From: Escherichia coli
GTDB taxonomy: Bacteria > Pseudomonadota > Gammaproteobacteria > Enterobacterales > Enterobacteriaceae
Assembly (NCBI RefSeq): GCF_050920415.1
Contig: NZ_CP169309.1
Direction: 5' to 3' (one strand)
DNA: 64,000 nucleotides
Shown here: one piece after another, positions 3,224 to 11,835 of the stretch
Numbering within the stretch: position 1 is the stretch's first letter
Layout: every line of letters begins with the position of its first letter
Made by a program: the position numbers and the translations under genes
The notes under the pieces: generated by a model
What the model was told of the DNA's origin: nothing
What the model saw: only the letters and a program-made list of their open reading frames with translations
Databases searched by the model: none

Positions 3224-3786
3224 ATTAAATGAGACAGGAATGTATACAAGCGGTCCAGCAGGCGGCGCAGCGCACGTTAACGGCGCGAGAAATACAGAAC
3301 ATTGAAGACCGCATTTATCGCAATATGCGCTCCATTGCTCGTGATGACCCTATGTCGTGGCGACAACTTTCCGAGTCAGAGCGGCTGTATCGTGCAGCAC
3401 AATTGGCATCTGAAGAATTACAGCGAGAAGCGGCATTAAAGAAACGTCGTGTGGCTCTCACTATAGCTGCACGTCAGAGATTGGATAAATTTATCAATAG
3501 CTATCAAGGGGCTGATGGGAAACTTGGCGCTCTTAACCGTACTATAGCTTTTAATGCAGACGGTAAATCTAATTTCCTCTCTGTTGAATCCAGAACAAAA
3601 GCCACCCGTGATTATGCATTGAGTCAATTGCAGGAGGCATTCGAAGCAGTTGATCCTCGCTTTTTTGGTCTGTTTGAAGATGAAGCGGGCGTACGTAGAC
3701 TGGCCCCCTGAATCTCCAGACAACCAGTATCACTTAAATAAGTGATAGTCTTAATACTAGTTTTTAGACTAGTCATTGGAGAACAG

Positions 3787-4152
3787 ATGATTGATGTCTT
3801 AGGGCCGGAGAAACGCAGACGGCGTACCACACAGGAAAAGATCGCAATTGTTCAGCAGAGCTTTGAACCGGGGATGACGGTCTCCCTCGTTGCCCGGCAA
3901 CATGGTGTAGCAGCCAGCCAGTTATTTCTCTGGCGTAAGCAATACCAGGAAGGAAGTCTTACTGCTGTCGCCGCCGGAGAACAGGTTGTTCCTGCCTCTG
4001 AACTTGCTGCCGCCATGAAGCAGATTAAAGAACTCCAGCGCCTGCTCGGCAAGAAAACGATGGAAAATGAACTCCTCAAAGAAGCCGTTGAATATGGACG
4101 GGCAAAAAAGTGGATAGCGCACGCGCCCTTATTGCCCGGGGATGGGGAGTAA
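3787..4152 (+). CDS. insC: IS2 transposase OrfA (InsC)
   Basis: Translation [41 protein letters not shown]... recognised as IS2 InsC; ORF track starts 15 codons upstream at an ATG within the left inverted repeat. Confidence 0.9.
4104..4110 (+). other. A6G slippery heptamer, putative -1 programmed frameshift site joining insC and insD
   Basis: AAAAAAG at the 3' end of insC inside the insC/insD overlap; IS3-family elements produce the OrfAB transposase by -1 frameshifting at such sites. Confidence 0.55.
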
Positions 4153-5015
4153 GCTTAGTCAGCCGTTGTCTCCGGGTGTCGCGTGCGCAGTTGCACGTCA
4201 TTCTCAGACGAACCGATGACTGGATGGATGGCCGCCGCAGTCGTCACACTGATGATACGGATGTGCTTCTCCGTATACACCATGTTATCGGAGAGCTGCC
4301 CACGTATGGTTATCGTCGGGTATGGGCGCTGCTTCGCAGACAGGCAGAACTTGATGGTATGCCTGCGATCAATGCCAAACGTGTTTACCGGATCATGCGC
4401 CAGAATGCGCTGTTGCTTGAGCGAAAACCTGCTGTACCGCCATCGAAACGGGCACATACAGGCAGAGTGGCCGTGAAAGAAAGCAATCAGCGATGGTGCT
4501 CTGACGGGTTCGAGTTCTGCTGTGATAACGGAGAGAGACTGCGTGTCACGTTCGCGCTGGACTGCTGTGATCGTGAGGCACTGCACTGGGCGGTGACTAC
4601 TGGCGGCTTCAACAGTGAAACAGTACAGGACGTCATGCTGGGAGCGGTGGAACGCCGCTTCGGCAACGATCTTCCGTCGTCTCCAGTGGAGTGGCTGACG
4701 GATAATGGTTCATGCTACCGGGCTAATGAAACACGCCAGTTCGCCCGGATGTTGGGACTTGAACCGAAGAACACGGCGGTGCGGAGTCCGGAGAGTAACG
4801 GAATAGCAGAGAGCTTCGTGAAAACGATAAAGCGTGACTACATCAGTATCATGCCCAAACCAGACGGGTTAACGGCAGCAAAGAACCTTGCAGAGGCGTT
4901 CGAGCATTATAACGAATGGCATCCGCATAGTGCGCTGGGTTATCGCTCGCCACGGGAATATCTGCGGCAGCGGGCTTGTAATGGGTTAAGTGATAACAGA
5001 TGTCTGGAAATATAG
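4110..5015 (+). CDS. insD: IS2 transposase OrfB (InsD), DDE integrase-like
   Basis: 301-aa ORF overlapping insC in the -1 frame; sequence ...[50 protein letters not shown]... recognised as IS2 InsD. Confidence 0.9.
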
Positions 5016-7048
5016 GGGCAAATCCAGTACGTGACCTGGTATATGAAATGCGGGGGCAAAATACTGGCAATGCTAAAGCAAGAAAAGGTGCTAAGGCGTG
5101 GAGAGAAGTTACAGAGCTGCTGCGCCGCCGGTTTAATGATGCTGGTGGGGACATTGGCTATCTCGAAAACTGGGGGATCCCTCAACATCATTCTATGGAA
5201 AAGGTTGGGGCGGTATCAAAGGATAAGTGGGTTAGCGATGTTATAGGTAAGCTGGATCGCAAATATTATATCCGAGCCGATGGACAACTGATGAACGATG
5301 CCGAGTTGTCTGCATTTCTTGGAGAGGCTTATAACACGATCGCTACTGGTGGGCTGAATAAGCTTACTGATACCGGAATGCGAATTTCCGGCGCACGTGC
5401 TAACCGTGGTAATGCATCACGACAGATACATTTCAAAGATGCAGATTCCTATCTGCAATATCAGCAACTTTATGGCGATCGCTCTCTATGGGAAATCATG
5501 GTCGGTCACCTGGAAGGTATCAGTAAAGATATTGCACTGGTGGAAACATATGGCCCAAACCCCGATCATGTTTTCCGCTCTCTTCTTGATCAGGTGAAGG
5601 CAGAAACGGCAACAGCTAACCCGAGTAAAACCGGTAAAGTCGAGCGGCTGGCGAACAACACAGAGAATCTGTACAACTTTATTTCCGGAAAGACACAGCC
5701 TGTAGCAAATCCGCACATCGCGCGATGGTCTGACAATATCCGCAACTGGCTGGTTGCCAGCAGACTCGGATCCGCGTTGCTGTCATCGTTCTCTGATCTT
5801 GGAACCATGTATCTGTCTGCGAAGGTGACCAACCTTCCAATGAACCAGTTATTCCGCAACCAGCTTGAAGCTATGGACCCAACGAACCGTACTGAGCTTG
5901 CGCGGGCGCGCCGCGCTGGTCTGGCGATGGAATCTCTACTTGGCAGCGTTAACCGCTGGGCGATGGATAATATGGGGCCGTCAGTGTCTCGTTGGGCTGC
6001 AACGGCGGTAATGCGTGCCAGTGGGCTTACAGCATGGTCAGATGCGCACAAGCGCGCCTATGGCGTAACCATGATGGGAAGCCTGGGAGAAGTAGTGTCA
6101 CGGACACCAGACCTTCGTAGCCTCGATGACTCTGATTTTCGTATCCTGAAAAGCAAAGGGATTACTGACACAGACTGGAGCGTATGGAAGCTGGCGCAAC
6201 AGGAGGACTGGGGGAACGGTAATAATACGATGCTGACACCGGAAAGCATTATGCGTATCCCTGATTCAGCAGTTAAACATCTTGGTGAGCCTGAACGCGT
6301 GAAATTTGAGGCAATGCGTAAACTGCTCGGTGCCGTAACTGAAGAAGTTGATATGGCTGTTATTACACCGGGAGCACGTGAGCAACTGATAACCGGTTCT
6401 GGTATTCAGCGTGGAACATGGAAAGGTGAATTAACGAGAAGTGTTTTCCTGTTTAAATCGTTCCCTATCTCGGTGGTTATGCGTCACTGGTCACGCGCTA
6501 TGGGTATGCCGTCTGCTGGTGGGCGTGCGGCATATATTGCGACGTTTATTGCCAGCACGACCATTCTTGGCGCTTTGTCTCAGCAACTTAACGACCTTGC
6601 GTCTGGTCGTAATCATCGCGAGATGACAGGAGAAGATGCTGCTAAATTTTGGCTTGGTGCTCTACTGAAAGGTGGTGGTCTTGGCCTTTACGGTGACTTT
6701 TTATTGTCAGATCACACTAGGTACGGAAGCGGCGCGCTGGCGTCGATGCTTGGCCCGGTAGCTGGTCTGGTTGATGACGTAGTGAAGATTGCTCAGGGCA
6801 TACCGTTAAATGCTGTGGAAGGGAAGAATGAGCAGACTGGTGGTGATCTGGTTAAGCTGGGGAAGGGGCTGATGCCAGGTGCGAATCTCTGGTACTTGAA
6901 GGCGGCTCTCGATCACATGATCTTTAACCAGATGCAGGAGTATTTTTCACCAGGCTATTTGCGTAAAATGGAGCAACGTTCGAAGAAAGAGTTTAACCAG
7001 ACATACTGGTGGCGACCACAGGATGTCACTCCGCAATAAGGATGAGAA

Positions 7049-7189
7049 ATGATTGCTTTTATTCTTGTTGTGTTTGCGCTTGTTGCACTTGGCGTTATGA
7101 ACCGTAAATGTATCATTGACGATGGCGAATTTGCTGTTGCAGTTATTTTGATATTATCTGGTGTAGCAGGATACATAGGCTTGTCATAA
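7049..7189 (+). CDS. Hypothetical small hydrophobic peptide (46 aa, two predicted hydrophobic segments)
   Basis: ATG at 7049 preceded by AAGGATGAG 4-10 nt upstream; translation MIAFILVVFALVALGVMNRKCIIDDGEFAVAVILILSGVAGYIGLS; stop TAA 7187-7189; followed by palindromes and a terminator. Too short for the ORF track. Confidence 0.35.
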   Translation: MIAFILVVFALVALGVMNRKCIIDDGEFAVAVILILSGVAGYIGLS

Positions 7190-7209
7190 CGTGAGTGTGA
7201 CATGTCACA

Positions 7210-7233
7210 GGCCGCTTTCGCGGCCTTTTCTTT
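7210..7233 (+). terminator. Rho-independent terminator (GGCCGC-TTTC-GCGGCC followed by TTTTCTTT)
   Basis: 6-bp GC stem with 4-nt loop followed by a T-run on the + strand; preceded by the perfect palindrome TGTGACATGTCACA (7196-7209). Overlaps the stop codon of the convergent minus-strand ORF. Confidence 0.5.
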
Positions 7234-7489
7234 ATGTGGTTTGTTTTCGTAGTTGTTCGGCACAATAGTCGAGATGTGTTTGCAGATCCTGCATAGACAT
7301 CTGTGAGCTGGTGACGTAGTTAATCAGTGCAGTCAGTTCGGCAAGTGGGCCATCGACATTAAATCCATCCTTATCGAGATCCCGGAGTAATTTCATCAAG
7401 TGCGATCCTTCCACCAGTGACCTGACGCCTCCCGGCGTGTGAATCCTTTCGGTAAATCCCTCTTCCAGTGGATAGTGATACTGCTGCAT
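7232..7489 (-). CDS. Hypothetical small acidic protein (85 aa from the ATG at 7489) behind a LexA box
   Basis: ORF track gives 7232..7507 from a TTG; a better start is the ATG at 7489 (MQQYHYPLEEGF...) with GGAGAAG 7 nt upstream. A strong LexA box lies about 20 nt upstream. No family recognised by eye. Confidence 0.5.
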   Translation of the reverse strand: MQQYHYPLEEGFTERIHTPGGVRSLVEGSHLMKLLRDLDKDGFNVDGPLAELTALINYVTSSQMSMQDLQTHLDYCAEQLRKQTT

Positions 7490-7508
7490 CTTATCTTCTC
7501 CATGCAAT

Positions 7509-7528
7509 AACTGTATGTTTATACAGTA
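7509..7528. promoter_or_regulatory. LexA (SOS) box AACTGTATGTTTATACAGTA
   Basis: CTGT-N8-ACAG with an AT-rich spacer, 17/20 match to the E. coli consensus TACTGTATATATATACAGTA; sits in the divergent region between the small minus-strand ORF and the tailspike gene. Confidence 0.6.
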
Positions 7529-7684
7529 TCAAATAATTTGTTTGCTATCCAGCACGTTTTGCGAATCACCTGAAAGGTAATATCTGCTCACATTAACACT
7601 CTTTCCATCCATATATGGTTTTTCAGGTAATAGAATAACCAGATATGCGGCGCAACGGGTGCTGCGACTATCTGGAGATTTAAC

Positions 7685-9940
7685 ATGACGGTCTCAACCG
7701 AAGTTGACCACAACGAATACACAGGCAATGGCGTTACGACTTCATTCCCTTATACCTTTAGGGTTTTCAAGGAATCTGATCTGGTAGTGCAGGTGGTTGA
7801 CCTTGACGAAAATATCGCTGTGCTGGCTCTGGATACTGATTACACTGTCACTGGGGCTGGTGGATATAACGGCGGTAATGTAATTCTGTCGAAGGCGTTA
7901 GCTAACGGTTACCAGATTTCTATATCACGAGAGCTCCCGGTTACGCAGGAAACTGATTTGCGTAATCAGGGGAAGTTCTTTGCAGAAGTGCATGAGGATG
8001 CTTTTGATAAGCTAACGATGCTGATCCAGCAGGTTCGAAGTTGGTTTAGCTTGGCGCTGCGCAAGCCGTCATTCGTGGCAAATTATTATAACGCGCTGAA
8101 CAACTATATTCGAAACCTGAAAGACCCGGTAAACCCGCAGGATGCATCCACAAAGAATTATGTGGACAGTACGGTTTTATCGAATATCGACCATACAATC
8201 CGTGTTCCTGATTCTTATATCGATCCGCTGCCACCTCTCGCTCAACTTGAAGGAAGCATAATCGGCATCGCCAACGGTAAGCCCGTTCCGTTCCCTGTGC
8301 CTTCAGGAACGGCGGCTGACGTATTCAACCAGTTGGCCAGCAGCGCTGACGGGAAAGGTGATGCGCTGATAACAGTGAAGCAGCCTTACCAGGGGGCAAT
8401 TTCTCTTTCGCAGCATATAAAAAATGCACAAGCCATTAGTGTTGTTGATTTTGGAGCGACAATTGATGGAACGCTTCACCCTTTAAGCGAGATATTTTCA
8501 ACACTATCAGCTGCTCAGATGGTATATCCATTTGTTTCATCTCTATCTCAATCTGTTGATTATGCTGCGCTTCAGTCCGCATGTAACACGGGAAAAACAG
8601 TGCTTATTCCAAAGGGAACTGGTTACTATAATTCAACTATTTTTCTGAAAAACTCCGTTAGGATTGTTGGAGAGGGAACTGATACAATAAATAGAGCGCA
8701 ATCATTTATGTCTATTGTTGGTAATATTTCAGCCTTTGCTTTAGATCAAGGTGATTCCCTATCGACAAAAATGATTCAGATTTTTATTGATGGTCTTTAT
8801 ATTTTCTATGATCCAGGAACCACACCAACGAATCCTGAAAATGATGGTGGGAAAATTGCATTTAATTTCTACTCGACAATTCCAAATTCAACAAGCTTGG
8901 AAATGTCTGAAATTAAAAACTGTACAGTTCATGGTGCATGGTCATGCTTTAATGATCAGACTGGCACATACTTGACAAAACTTACGAATGTGTGGGCCAG
9001 AAACTGCCATAATGGTTTTACAAAAGGAACTGGCACTACCATTCTGATGGAAAGATGTTATACATCTGGATGTATATCACCATATCAGTTTGGTTCTGTC
9101 TTTGCAGCTACAATGATTAACTGTGCCATGGATGGATCAAATATTTCGTTAAACGCAGGTTCGCTTGGTGGGGCTGGCGTTCATGTTCTTAACACACATA
9201 GTTTTAACATTATTGGTTTTGATGCGGAGGGTAACACCATCTCTACAGATGGTTATGGAGAGGCAGCACTATTCCATTTCGAAAATAGTAGTGGTGGCAT
9301 TTCTGGCCTGACTGCACATCAGAACAGCATGCGAAGTGTTGCGCCAAGTGATGCTGGTGTAGTTTCCTACATCAGGGCGTCAGGTAGCAGCGATGTTAAA
9401 ATTGAGTCATCAGAAGATGATTTATCTGACACCAACACAGTTGCATATACTGGGTCTGGGTATCCCATCATGCTACATGCAACTGACACAGCTAAAATAA
9501 GCGTCTTTAATAGCAGATTCAGGGCGACTACCACTGGTACCCCTGTCTTAAGTACGCTAAGTACTGGTGATGTATCATGGTATGACTGCCCTAAAAAAAC
9601 AGGACTTATCGTAGATGGTTATTCACAAATAACATCTAAGGAAGGATTGCAAACATCATGCTTCTATACCAGTAAAGGCTCTACTGCTGTTGCTGAAAAT
9701 ACTCCGACAACACTTTTCTCTCTACCAGATTCGCAAGGTACTTACATTATTAGCGTATGGGTGGCTGGAAGCGGAGAAAATTACGCATCTACACAACTGG
9801 CAATGTATGATGGAGATAAGCTAATTCTTGTTGCGTTAAAAATAGCAGCATTTCTTAGTTTTTCAGCAACAGGGAGAATTGTAACCATTACAAGCCAGGT
9901 GGCAGGCACTTTAAACTGGACTTACACTAAAATAGGTTGA
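7685..9940 (+). CDS. Phage tailspike / tail fibre (751 aa), probable O-polysaccharide-specific receptor-binding protein
   Basis: N-terminus MTVSTEVDHNEYTGNGVTTSFPYTFRVF... has the Y-x-G-x-G...F...F signature of podovirus tail-fibre/tailspike particle-binding domains; from memory it resembles epsilon15/phiV10-type tailspikes (unverified). The C-terminal two thirds are visibly AT-rich and Ser/Thr/Asn/Gly-rich, consistent with a beta-helical receptor-binding domain. Confidence 0.75.
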   Translation: MTVSTEVDHNEYTGNGVTTSFPYTFRVFKESDLVVQVVDLDENIAVLALDTDYTVTGAGGYNGGNVILSKALANGYQISISRELPVTQETDLRNQGKFFAEVHEDAFDKLTMLIQQVRSWFSLALRKPSFVANYYNALNNYIRNLKDPVNPQDASTKNYVDSTVLSNIDHTIRVPDSYIDPLPPLAQLEGSIIGIANGKPVPFPVPSGTAADVFNQLASSADGKGDALITVKQPYQGAISLSQHIKNAQAISVVDFGATIDGTLHPLSEIFSTLSAAQMVYPFVSSLSQSVDYAALQSACNTGKTVLIPKGTGYYNSTIFLKNSVRIVGEGTDTINRAQSFMSIVGNISAFALDQGDSLSTKMIQIFIDGLYIFYDPGTTPTNPENDGGKIAFNFYSTIPNSTSLEMSEIKNCTVHGAWSCFNDQTGTYLTKLTNVWARNCHNGFTKGTGTTILMERCYTSGCISPYQFGSVFAATMINCAMDGSNISLNAGSLGGAGVHVLNTHSFNIIGFDAEGNTISTDGYGEAALFHFENSSGGISGLTAHQNSMRSVAPSDAGVVSYIRASGSSDVKIESSEDDLSDTNTVAYTGSGYPIMLHATDTAKISVFNSRFRATTTGTPVLSTLSTGDVSWYDCPKKTGLIVDGYSQITSKEGLQTSCFYTSKGSTAVAENTPTTLFSLPDSQGTYIISVWVAGSGENYASTQLAMYDGDKLILVALKIAAFLSFSATGRIVTITSQVAGTLNWTYTKIG

Positions 9941-9975: not shown

Positions 9976-11835
9976 TTAAAAAATAAATGGCTTGTCATTT
10001 TTTAATTTTTTCCCAAACTCCCTTGAGCCTTCTAGAGTGAAATGACTATTATCAAAGTAAAGATAATCACCTTTAGTAGAAAGGATGTCACAATTCATTG
10101 ACTTTCCGCACTGCTCGGCAAGCGTATCTATGTATTTATACGAATGCTGGTTGCTACCAAGATAGCCTTTTATCGTATTGTTAATTTCAACTCTACTATT
10201 GTCATAATACTTTTTAGAGTATTTATTTATCCCATCAACTGTGTTTACGCCAGATTTAAAAGCAGACTTAATTATTTCCATTGGCTGTGCCGTAAACTTC
10301 ATCTTAGGCCCAAATACAATAACTTCTCCTTTAGTCCTCTCCTGTATTTTGCCTATAGAGTAAAGCATCCCGAACAGATCGCCAACGCCATAATCATCAT
10401 GAAGGATTATAATGTTAGCTTCAGCTATGGCTGGAGATGAGATTACGTCATTGAATATTTTTTTGCACTTTTCTACATAGGGCATGTCGTTTGGTGTATA
10501 ACCAAAGTTTGAACATAAGTTTGTAGTTCTTATATAAGTTATATCACCCTTCATCCCATTTTCAGTAAGTGCATAAGTCAGATCTATGCCATGAGAATTA
10601 CCGATTATTACTATTTTTTTGTCACCTGTCTTCGGTACAGGGTGAGGCTTGTCTCCATCAACCCAATACCTGTTCATTTGTTCTTTTAGCTGTTCGGACG
10701 TCATTGTGGCAAACGAAAACCTTGATGGAATTCCAGATAGCAATAGTACAGCGAAGCACAAACCAACTACACCACCTACAGGTAGCACGATTGAAGTTAA
10801 TTCATTCAAGGACCTGCCGTTTTTAAATTTTGAAAGTGCCTTTCTTGAAGGGTTTTCAATTAAATAAAATGATGCGGCACCAATAAGAATTGATAAGGCA
10901 ACACCTGATACTGTATAAACCATATCATCCATCTTATTCATTGACATATATACAACTATGGGCCAGTGAACCAGATATACCGAGTATGAAATTTTCCCAA
11001 CCCATTGAGATAATGCATTATCAAGTAATAGGTTATCTTTACATCCAAGATAAATGACAAAGAAAGTAGAAACGACTGGTATTAAGGCAAGATACCCAGG
11101 CCACTTCATTAAGCTGTTAAGCAAGACTATCCCCGATACTGCAAAGGCTATGGCAATCCATCTAAATACAGCAGTGCGTTTTGAATTTTGTATAGTAGGA
11201 AGAAGGTAGGCAAGGCCGCCAGCCAGCATCTCCCAAGCTCTGCTTGACAGAAGATAAAATGCAGCGCCCTGATTATTATAAGAAAGATACACTGAGGCAG
11301 TAAATGATATAATTGCAAGGATGGCAACAACATACCTTATATGCTTAGCGCCCAATAGCTTTGCAATCACCATCATTATGATTGGATATACCATGTAAAA
11401 CTGCCACTCTACAGAAAGCGACCATGTATGAAGAAGCCATTTCTGCTTTGATGCAGTATCAAAATAATCAATGCTATGGTAATACTCAACGTTTGAGAAA
11501 AATAAAAGGCTACTTCTTACGTGTTGAGCCAGGTATTCATATTCAGAAGGTAAAAGAATGAAGTAACCAACTATCAGAACAGCAACTGAAACTACAGTTA
11601 AAGCAGGTATAATTCTTCTTGCCCTATCAAGATAAAATCCTAACAGTGAAAAGTTTCCATTAGATATCTTTGTGTAAATTATTCCAGTCATCAGATACCC
11701 TGATATAACAAAGAATATATCTACGCCTGAAAATCCACCAGAGAACCCTTTGACTCCGAAGTGATAAAGGACAACTGCCATAACAGCAATAGCCCTAAGC
11801 CCGCCTATATCTGTTCTGTATTTTAAAGAAGACAT
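9976..11835 (-). CDS. Membrane acyltransferase-3 family protein with C-terminal SGNH-like domain; probable O-antigen acetyltransferase (OafA/Oac-like)
   Basis: 619 aa; N-terminal R-x10-H motif (RTDIGGLRAIAVMAVVLYH) and about 10 hydrophobic helices typical of acyltransferase-3; C-terminal soluble domain with a GNSH block. Strongly AT-rich gene, convergent with the tailspike. Confidence 0.8.
   Translation of the reverse strand: MSSLKYRTDIGGLRAIAVMAVVLYHFGVKGFSGGFSGVDIFFVISGYLMTGIIYTKISNGNFSLLGFYLDRARRIIPALTVVSVAVLIVGYFILLPSEYEYLAQHVRSSLLFFSNVEYYHSIDYFDTASKQKWLLHTWSLSVEWQFYMVYPIIMMVIAKLLGAKHIRYVVAILAIISFTASVYLSYNNQGAAFYLLSSRAWEMLAGGLAYLLPTIQNSKRTAVFRWIAIAFAVSGIVLLNSLMKWPGYLALIPVVSTFFVIYLGCKDNLLLDNALSQWVGKISYSVYLVHWPIVVYMSMNKMDDMVYTVSGVALSILIGAASFYLIENPSRKALSKFKNGRSLNELTSIVLPVGGVVGLCFAVLLLSGIPSRFSFATMTSEQLKEQMNRYWVDGDKPHPVPKTGDKKIVIIGNSHGIDLTYALTENGMKGDITYIRTTNLCSNFGYTPNDMPYVEKCKKIFNDVISSPAIAEANIIILHDDYGVGDLFGMLYSIGKIQERTKGEVIVFGPKMKFTAQPMEIIKSAFKSGVNTVDGINKYSKKYYDNSRVEINNTIKGYLGSNQHSYKYIDTLAEQCGKSMNCDILSTKGDYLYFDNSHFTLEGSREFGKKLKNDKPFIF

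Follow-up and report, generated by a model that had tools for sequence, protein, structure and literature searches.

A 46-residue membrane-peptide gene in a variable envelope-protein slot at the late-operon end of a Uetakevirus prophage

Results

We examined a stretch of 64,000 nucleotides from Escherichia coli (contig NZ_CP169309.1 of assembly GCF_050920415.1), here called the window, and within it the junction between a gp17-like virion gene and a tailspike gene, where a small gene at 7049-7189 on the plus strand encodes a hydrophobic peptide of 46 amino acids (aa). The region is 95-97% identical to the Uetakevirus phage phiV10, to vB_EcoP_PAS61 and to many E. coli chromosomes, and about 80% identical to the Salmonella phages SPN1S and SPC32H; the window is an epsilon15/phiV10-like (Uetakevirus) prophage. 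The genes at the junction run in the order gp17, peptide, terminator, antirepressor (ant) and tailspike. The small gene begins 9 nt from the gp17 stop codon TAA (7037-7039), and its Shine-Dalgarno sequence, AAGGA (7038-7042, +), lies 6 nt 5' of the ATG and overlaps that stop. It is followed by a perfect 14-bp palindrome, TGTGACATGTCACA (7196-7209), with the 12-bp core GTGACATGTCAC, and then by the intrinsic terminator of the late operon (7209-7233, +; AGGCCGC-TTTC-GCGGCCT followed by TTTCTTT), whose hairpin proper (7209-7226) abuts the palindrome. The terminator was recovered by a terminator scan and by RNA folding (z = -2.8) and is annotated in both phiV10 and epsilon15.

An initial annotation, made from the letters of the window, had described an unannotated open reading frame (ORF) with a ribosome-binding site shortly after the stop of a large gene. 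The ORF, the ribosome-binding site and the product, MIAFILVVFALVALGVMNRKCIIDDGEFAVAVILILSGVAGYIGLS, identical to the sequence quoted there, are all in place, but the gene is already catalogued. The phiV10 record annotates it as PhiV10p21, together with the hairpin as a terminator; PhiV10p21 and SPC32H_019 bear the description "putative integral membrane protein"; the SPN1S record annotates the gene too, and the RefSeq entry for the E. coli protein is WP_000559990.1. The peptide matches phrog_7892, a PHROG of unknown function, over residues 1-46 of a 46-position profile (E = 5.5e-33), and is 85-100% identical to its phage orthologues. As in those phages, the gene stands directly 3' of a gp17 homologue and 5' of the palindrome and terminator. 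The cassette itself was found in 53 complete E. coli genomes, and part of the surrounding 1-kb region in 535 of 5426.

Conservation of the reading frame in related prophages, which the initial annotation had named as a check, is borne out. Homologues form 42 clusters (at 90% identity) with 72-98% identity, the named records being from Escherichia, Salmonella, Citrobacter and Hafnia prophages, and the frame is kept across these four genera. Among 12 distinct DNA alleles the pairwise ratio of nonsynonymous to synonymous change (dN/dS) is 0.12-0.29; the proportion of synonymous sites that differ (pS) is 0.27-0.41 against 0.07-0.14 for nonsynonymous sites (pN), with Fisher p values of 1e-4 to 4e-3 for four of the five divergent pairs. 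Over codon positions 1, 2 and 3 the variable sites number 14, 6 and 27, and the Shine-Dalgarno site and its spacing are conserved across loci. Because of the homologue clusters, the dN/dS values, the retained Shine-Dalgarno site and a confident AlphaFold2 model (below), we conclude that ORF 7049-7189 is a genuine gene, kept by selection, whose product is a helical-hairpin peptide.

Some alleles have decayed, by C-terminal frameshift, internal frameshift or N-terminal truncation, and one lineage of four loci combines a degraded 46-aa allele with a mutated Shine-Dalgarno sequence and a palindrome altered at one base. A Salmonella prophage (GCA_040355085.1) has the allele that diverges furthest of those seen, at 76% identity; gp17 of this prophage ends six codons short at a TAG, but the 46-aa gene downstream is intact.

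With the family alignment as input, AlphaFold2 predicts a helical hairpin with helices at residues 2-19 and 25-45 (mean predicted local distance difference test score, pLDDT, 92), in agreement with the small two-helix membrane peptide that had been proposed. The loop between the helices is acidic, and the C-terminus, ...GYIGLS, has no charged tail. Residues G38, A40, G41, Y42, G44 and S46 of helix 2 (G38-x-A40-G41-Y42-x-G44-x-S46) are invariant, and the face of small residues that they form is of the kind that mediates helix-helix packing, a role we infer for it here.

The gene lies at the end of a long structural operon, the last large gene of which is interrupted in the window. The upstream gene is a homologue of phiV10 gene 20 and epsilon15 gp17 (phrog_684, virion structural protein); distant relatives carry annotations as internal virion proteins or as pilot proteins, and epsilon15 is among the podoviruses listed as having an ejection-protein operon (PMC8954989). 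Mapping to phiV10 gene 20 places its 5' part (nt 1-467) at 3229-3695 (+) and its 3' part (nt 466-2475), which covers phrog_684 profile positions 157-831 and forms the left conserved border of the locus discussed below, at 5027-7039 (+). Between them, after about codon 155, lies a 1331-bp IS2 (3696-5026, +), identified by NCBIfam matches to IS2 TnpA and TnpB, by its terminal inverted repeats and by break-point mapping, with the target duplication GTACG at 3691-3695 and 5027-5031. The description of the upstream ORF as the last large virion gene thus holds for its position and not for its integrity, since ORF 5000-7039 is the 3' two-thirds of an IS2-split gp17-like gene. Because gp17 is broken, the prophage in the window is probably defective and unable to form infectious particles.

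On the phiV10 map, terminase through p21 and then the terminator make up one structural operon of about 17 kb. A simple consensus scan of 6800-7049, which weak or non-sigma-70 sites could escape, found no sigma-70-like promoter 5' of the 46-aa ORF; its sole match is weak (9/12) and lies inside the ORF. Given that the scan revealed none, the gene probably forms the final cistron ahead of the structural (late) operon terminator. A promoter embedded in the gp17 3' end was considered as well, and the consensus scan gave none. Across 56 aligned gp17 alleles, third-position entropy falls to about 0.5 bit in the last 50 or so codons (about 6890-7036 in the window), against mostly 0.75-1.0 elsewhere, and a comparable dip in synonymous-site diversity lies about 285 codons from the gene end; the drop at the 3' end could reflect an embedded signal or recombination that homogenises a cassette border.

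What lies between the gp17 stop and the palindrome differs sharply among related prophages. E. coli YDC107 and phage phiv142-3 share more than 99% identity with the window in gp17, yet their DNA from the gp17 stop to the palindrome is wholly different: a 57-aa ORF with two transmembrane (TM) segments, at the same 10-nt offset and with the same stop-overlapping Shine-Dalgarno sequence, is followed by a 98-aa three-TM ORF, after which come the same GTGACATGTCACA and terminator. In epsilon15 this slot holds gp18, a 64-aa two-TM protein whose gene overlaps gp17 by ATGA, and in phage Tyrion a 103-aa two-TM protein, both ending at the same palindrome. Start/stop coupling to gp17 is thus a feature of three unrelated cassettes.

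We collected slots in three ways: 120 loci by the palindrome-plus-hairpin pattern, 80 loci (78 informative) by the phiV10-type gp17 C-terminus, and 80 loci (78 informative) by the epsilon15-type gp17 C-terminus. None of the 78 phiV10-type slots is empty; about 30 hold the 46-aa gene, 40 the 57-aa and 98-aa pair, and 8 a lipoprotein cassette. The 78 epsilon15-type slots, likewise never empty, hold two-TM peptides of 57-64, 63, 90-92, 104, 109 and 112 aa, a 128-aa four-TM protein, and lipoproteins of 107 and 127 aa. Further products in the palindrome-anchored set are signal-peptide proteins (102, 123 and 186 aa) and two other lipoproteins (137 and 159 aa). Taken over all collections, two-TM products measure 46, 57, 57-64, 63, 66, 90-92, 103-104, 109 and 91-112 aa, and lipoproteins 107, 127-138, 137 and 159 aa. 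At least 15 unrelated cassettes thus occupy the slot across related prophages, and all of their products are predicted to be envelope (membrane, lipo- or secreted) proteins; this statement leaves out a more inclusive clustering made without the gp17 anchor, which brought in unrelated contexts and soluble proteins beside reverse-oriented palindromes. Because gp17 genes more than 99% identical precede different cassettes, the 46-aa cassette is not linked to the gp17 allele.

Searches of PHROGs, NCBIfam and PADLOC with the 46-aa peptide and nine other cassette proteins returned no family of known function; the one weak match, to Cor, is confined to the lipoprotein signal peptide of another cassette. 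The moron-like position claimed by the initial annotation is supported: unrelated cassettes replace one another at a fixed site between conserved genes, and the terminator that closes the cassette in the window (7209-7233) doubles as that of the operon, though the consensus scan of 6800-7049 gave no promoter of the cassette's own. These comparisons go beyond that annotation and mark the slot as a hypervariable locus dedicated to predicted envelope proteins. phiV10 encodes a RecE-RecT fusion and SPC32H encodes RecT/RecE, and it is probably through homologous recombination, with the conserved 3' end of gp17 on one side and the palindrome/terminator on the other, that one cassette replaces another.

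Further variants of the junction were seen. A TL-2011b-type IMG/VR contig and another prophage carry two modules of palindrome plus GGCCGC hairpin in inverted orientation, one 3' of the late-operon slot and one 3' of a Bro-N antirepressor gene, and between them lie further small genes, including one on the other strand for a 53-77-aa "transmembrane-anchored" protein; the variable envelope-protein region thus spans both sides of the terminator. Distant epsilon15-type relatives, with gp17 about 82% identical to that of epsilon15, keep a gp18-like two-TM peptide of 57-61 aa overlapping the gp17 stop. Pseudomonas and Yersinia phages with a gp17 homologue have no such small slot gene. In Pseudomonas phage YA3 a gene on the opposite strand (4086-4496, -), annotated as a lipoprotein like an outer-membrane protein assembly factor, abuts the gp17 homologue, so that an envelope protein stands beside the last internal virion gene there too.

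The "tandem palindromes" that had been noted at the end of the 46-aa gene, a perfect 14-bp palindrome and a GC-rich hairpin terminator, are present as described; they are not specific to that gene, the module recurring at several operon ends. TGTGACATGTCACA occurs once in the 64-kb window, allowing two mismatches. Its core was found in all eight loci retrieved by peptide identity, in 71 of the 78 phiV10-type gp17 loci exactly and in the other 7 with one mismatch, and in 57 of the 78 epsilon15-type loci exactly and 4 nearly so. Around it the sequence varies, in the bases between stop and palindrome, in the spacer of 0-2 nt, in the hairpin loop and sometimes in the whole right arm of the hairpin. 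The palindrome is missing from 17 more distant epsilon15-type loci, which have other terminators; in such distant loci the same 12-mer was seen within the gp17 coding sequence (at about position 322), probably by chance.

Whole phage genomes carry several copies. There are three exact copies in epsilon15 (at 2142, 19517 and 39612), three exact and one near copy in SPC32H (sites 2145, 19634, 26696 and 38629), and two exact copies (2262 and 19493) with one near copy spanning the record ends in phiV10. None of 100 shuffles reached the epsilon15 or SPC32H counts (at one mismatch or fewer), and about 0.002 exact 12-mers per genome would be expected by chance in phiV10. Each copy is closely followed, in the direction of the terminated gene, by an intrinsic terminator, whose hairpin sequence differs from site to site: one site comes after the moron that lies on the minus strand between terminase and portal, another is the structural-operon end studied here, and a third is the end of the early-right operon. 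In several cases the last gene is stopped by a TGA that lies within the palindrome. The complete module occurs, in the phage database, among Uetakevirus-type phages only. We therefore read the palindrome, again further than the initial annotation had gone, as a genome-wide operon-end motif of this phage group that is not private to the 46-aa gene.

Candidate roles for the palindrome are a protein site that aids termination, a hairpin in the 3' untranslated region (3'-UTR), or an anchor for RecE/RecT-mediated cassette exchange. Rfam gave no family in 6900-7750 apart from a chance snoRNA match (E = 0.31). A CRP site, which needs N6 spacing, a LexA site, which needs CTGT-N8-ACAG, and a phage-repressor site (the epsilon15 repressor sites are ATTACC...GGTAAT-like) were each rejected by inspection. 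A promoter was rejected too, the -35-like hexamers of the palindrome having a -10 partner on neither strand, and so was a tie to the convergent ant gene, which is also present at palindrome-less loci.

The right-hand neighbour of the slot, at 7232-7489 on the minus strand, is a small antirepressor gene closely homologous to SPC32H Ant, a protein of solved structure (PDB 5D50_E, E = 4.4e-48; phrog_450; SPC32H annotation). A LexA box of the form CTGT-N8-ACAG, AACTGTATGTTTATACAGTA, lies 5' of it at 7509-7528, and epsilon15 has an equivalent box; ant and its LexA box are the known LexA-Ant-Rep induction switch of SPN1S/SPC32H-type phages. The 46-aa ORF accordingly does converge on an SOS-regulated gene, as had been reported. 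The further suggestion of a functional pair fares badly, because the right-hand flanks of the 46-aa cassette vary, being of at least three kinds (the small ant, a minus-strand "transmembrane-anchored" gene and a Bro-N antirepressor), and because Ant co-occurs with many other slot cassettes; the 46-aa cassette is thus not linked to the SOS-controlled gene. Beyond ant, the tailspike gene (7685-9940, +; 751 aa, with the conserved Uetakevirus N-terminus) is followed by a 619-aa acyltransferase-like gene (9976-11835, -), as in SPC32H and PAS61 (O-antigen acetylase). The oac gene of phiV10, at the same position, is annotated as conferring superinfection immunity.

Discussion

We suggest that the 46-aa gene is accessory membrane-peptide cargo, and of this we are much more confident than of any particular function. 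The best-supported reading of its function, to which the kind of locus points, would be exclusion or modification at the level of the envelope. Superinfection exclusion specifically, which the initial annotation had offered as an alternative to a Hok/TisB-like toxin, we would put at a little short of an even chance; it stands as a reasonable leading hypothesis because the slot is a positional analogue of the sieA locus of P22-like phages, and the comparison of slots strengthens it, whereas the toxin alternative finds no support (see below). SieA blocks the injection of DNA through interference with the ejection proteins gp16 and gp20, and its gene lies between gene 16, the last ejection-protein gene, and the tailspike gene 9, is carried by just one in three P22-like phages, and is weakly transcribed in lysogens and raised on induction (PMC10883804). 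In the mechanism that we propose, the 46-aa gene would be transcribed with the late operon and its translation would probably proceed by coupling or re-initiation, coupling being probable because the ribosome-binding site overlaps the gp17 stop codon. The peptide would then insert into the inner membrane, would probably use the invariant small residues along one face of helix 2 to bind a target in the membrane, and would most likely block an envelope step in the infection cycle of other phages, such as the trans-envelope conduit of the ejection proteins, as SieA does. Epsilon15 gp22, a 66-aa two-TM protein annotated "serotype conversion: alpha polymerase inhibitor" (AY150271), offers a working model of the way in which such a small protein might act on a membrane enzyme.

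Several points weigh against this proposal. No cassette could be placed in a known family of exclusion or defence proteins by PHROGs, NCBIfam or PADLOC, and the literature on Uetakevirus exclusion, phiV10p21 and epsilon15 gp18 yielded no functional or expression study of any cassette; the papers on phiv142-3 and ZX5 do not address the slot genes. With no promoter of its own detected, the gene may be expressed late only, whereas exclusion genes are usually expressed from the repressed prophage, and in the window the upstream IS2 probably reduces or abolishes its late-operon expression. So close a coupling to gp17 is what one expects of a structural-operon gene more than of a classical moron. 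The retention of the gp18-like family (57-64 aa) across considerable divergence in distant epsilon15-type phages could bespeak a conserved role in the lytic cycle rather than arms-race cargo. Finally, the 46-aa allele is frameshifted or truncated at 5-6 loci, although this is as expected of an accessory gene in decaying prophages.

A late membrane function within the lytic cycle, be it lysis timing by an antiholin- or holin-like peptide or late protection of the infected cell or its progeny, for instance from re-adsorption or from ejection into cells that are lysing, would imply expression together with the virion genes only and would fit the last cistron of a late operon that is coupled to gp17 and has no detected promoter; small proteins with two or three TM segments are holin-like in size, and sieA itself rises on induction (PMC10883804). 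A complete lysis cassette (three-TM protein, holin, endolysin and Rz/Rz1) is located elsewhere, however, 3' of the tailspike and oac genes, the peptide ends without the charged C-terminal tail, and the lipoprotein and periplasmic cassettes of the slot could not replace a holin or antiholin, all of which makes this function unlikely, if still worth keeping in view. We regard as distinctly unlikely a host-envelope modifier of the lysogenic-conversion type, in which the peptide would inhibit or modulate an inner-membrane enzyme or transporter of the host. Its two-TM size class and conserved helix-packing motif would suit such a role, as would the annotated action of epsilon15 gp22 against the O-antigen polymerase, the O-antigen-modifying genes of neighbouring prophage loci and the fact that slot cargo is always envelope-directed; on the other side, a promoter for expression in the lysogen was not found, the peptide has no homology to characterised conversion proteins, and the serotype-conversion genes of these phages lie elsewhere, 3' of the tailspike gene. 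The peptide might also be a partner of gp17 or of the ejection apparatus, either a membrane chaperone for the hydrophobic internal virion proteins or a small packaged protein that leaves the virion with them, like T7 gp6.7 and gp7.3. Its position directly after gp15-gp16-gp17 with translational coupling, and the persistence of a gp18-like peptide in distant epsilon15-type phages, speak for this, as do the small virion proteins of T7 that are translocated on ejection (PMC11784390). Against it, nearly identical gp17 alleles combine with unrelated cassettes, lipoproteins included, the Pseudomonas and Yersinia phages do without such a gene, and profile comparison of the 46-aa and gp18 families found no homology (probability 2.4%); we consider such a partnership improbable.

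A type I toxin of the Hok, TisB or Ibs kind, with its mRNA under the control of antisense transcripts reading through from the SOS-induced antirepressor gene, is suggested by the small size and hydrophobicity of the peptide and by the terminator, which has no T-tract in the minus direction, so that ant transcripts could run antisense into the ORF. It is nonetheless highly improbable. The gene closes a 17-kb structural operon as its last cistron, and no promoter of its own was found; neither a matching RNA family in 6900-7750 nor a PADLOC hit accompanies it, and no cognate small RNA was found, the convergent gene being a protein-coding antirepressor. The peptide has two helices and an acidic loop instead of a single pore-forming helix, the cassette and ant assort independently, and the slot also takes lipoproteins. 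That the ORF arose by chance, or is spacer DNA between gene and terminator, might be argued from its shortness, its hydrophobicity and its frameshifted alleles; the selection analysis already contradicts this, with the frame kept in four genera, dN/dS clearly under 1 and surplus variation at third positions, and the conserved Shine-Dalgarno site, the PHROG family and the confident AlphaFold2 prediction leave the idea scarcely credible.

Returning to exclusion at the envelope, we may combine it with the palindrome in a wider proposal, that the gp17-to-tailspike junction is a swap hot-spot of unrecognised ejection-blocking envelope factors and that GTGACATGTCAC is a specific cis-element. As a whole this is possible but doubtful. 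If it held, the 46-aa peptide would be among the smallest anti-phage factors that act at the envelope, in a repertoire of membrane peptides, lipoproteins and periplasmic proteins, and GTGACATGTCAC would serve as a binding site for a factor of phage or host origin, or would form a 3'-UTR RNA hairpin, and would aid termination or 3'-end formation or anchor recombination.

Since about 10% of complete E. coli genomes carry this prophage region, slot products must be common in natural populations. Were the cassettes exclusion factors or envelope modifiers, these very small proteins would form a compact set that is easy to clone and that could help to dissect how podovirus ejection proteins cross the envelope, and they could explain the resistance of some strains to O-antigen-specific phages and to tailocins selected according to tailspike type. 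Should the operon-end palindrome be a signal at the protein or RNA level, it would provide this well-studied group, which includes epsilon15, SPN1S and phiV10, with a punctuation mark of a new sort, regulatory or evolutionary. If neither reading holds, the gene is still real and already catalogued, and it is not half of a toxin-antitoxin pair.

Comparison with known systems

The type I toxins Hok, TisB, Ibs and Ldr resemble the 46-aa peptide in size class and hydrophobicity only, and differ from it in that its gene is an operon-terminal cistron with neither a detected promoter nor a cognate small RNA, and in that its product has two helices. Lambdoid morons and envelope exclusion proteins such as HK97 gp15, Cor of phi80 and N15, T5 Llp and T4 Imm are accessory and variable, and their genes lie among or after virion genes and are followed by a terminator. 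Classical morons have a promoter of their own, a point in which they differ from the 46-aa gene, for which the consensus scan found none. Within the same phage group, epsilon15 gp22 is likewise a small two-TM protein, and its annotated target is an inner-membrane enzyme of the host; its gene lies 3' of the tailspike gene on the minus strand, its sequence is unrelated, and its function is as given in the GenBank record. The gp18 family of epsilon15 (57-64 aa) shares with the 46-aa peptide its position, two TM helices, a short charged loop of the form [RK][RK]G-I/L-I/L-x-[DE] and a gene start that overlaps the gp17 stop, and differs in its longer N-terminal hydrophobic part. Homology between the two was considered and rejected, hhalign giving the low probability cited above and a match of only 12 columns in the loop.

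The locus of P22 SieA is alike in belonging to a temperate podovirus, in being flanked by the last ejection-protein gene and the tailspike gene, and in adjoining an antirepressor region. SieA itself is a protein of about 19 kDa with several TM segments (about 160-200 aa) and the cytoplasmic motif FxRYPxEAxxFNK (PMC10883804), whereas the peptide, with 46 residues and two helices, has neither that size nor that motif and shows no similarity to it, so that the likeness is one of locus and not of homology. PhiV10p21, SPC32H_019 and the SPN1S protein, by contrast, belong to the same family as the 46-aa peptide, with 85-100% identity, the same position and the same palindrome and terminator, and the window differs from them only in the IS2 that splits the gp17 upstream.

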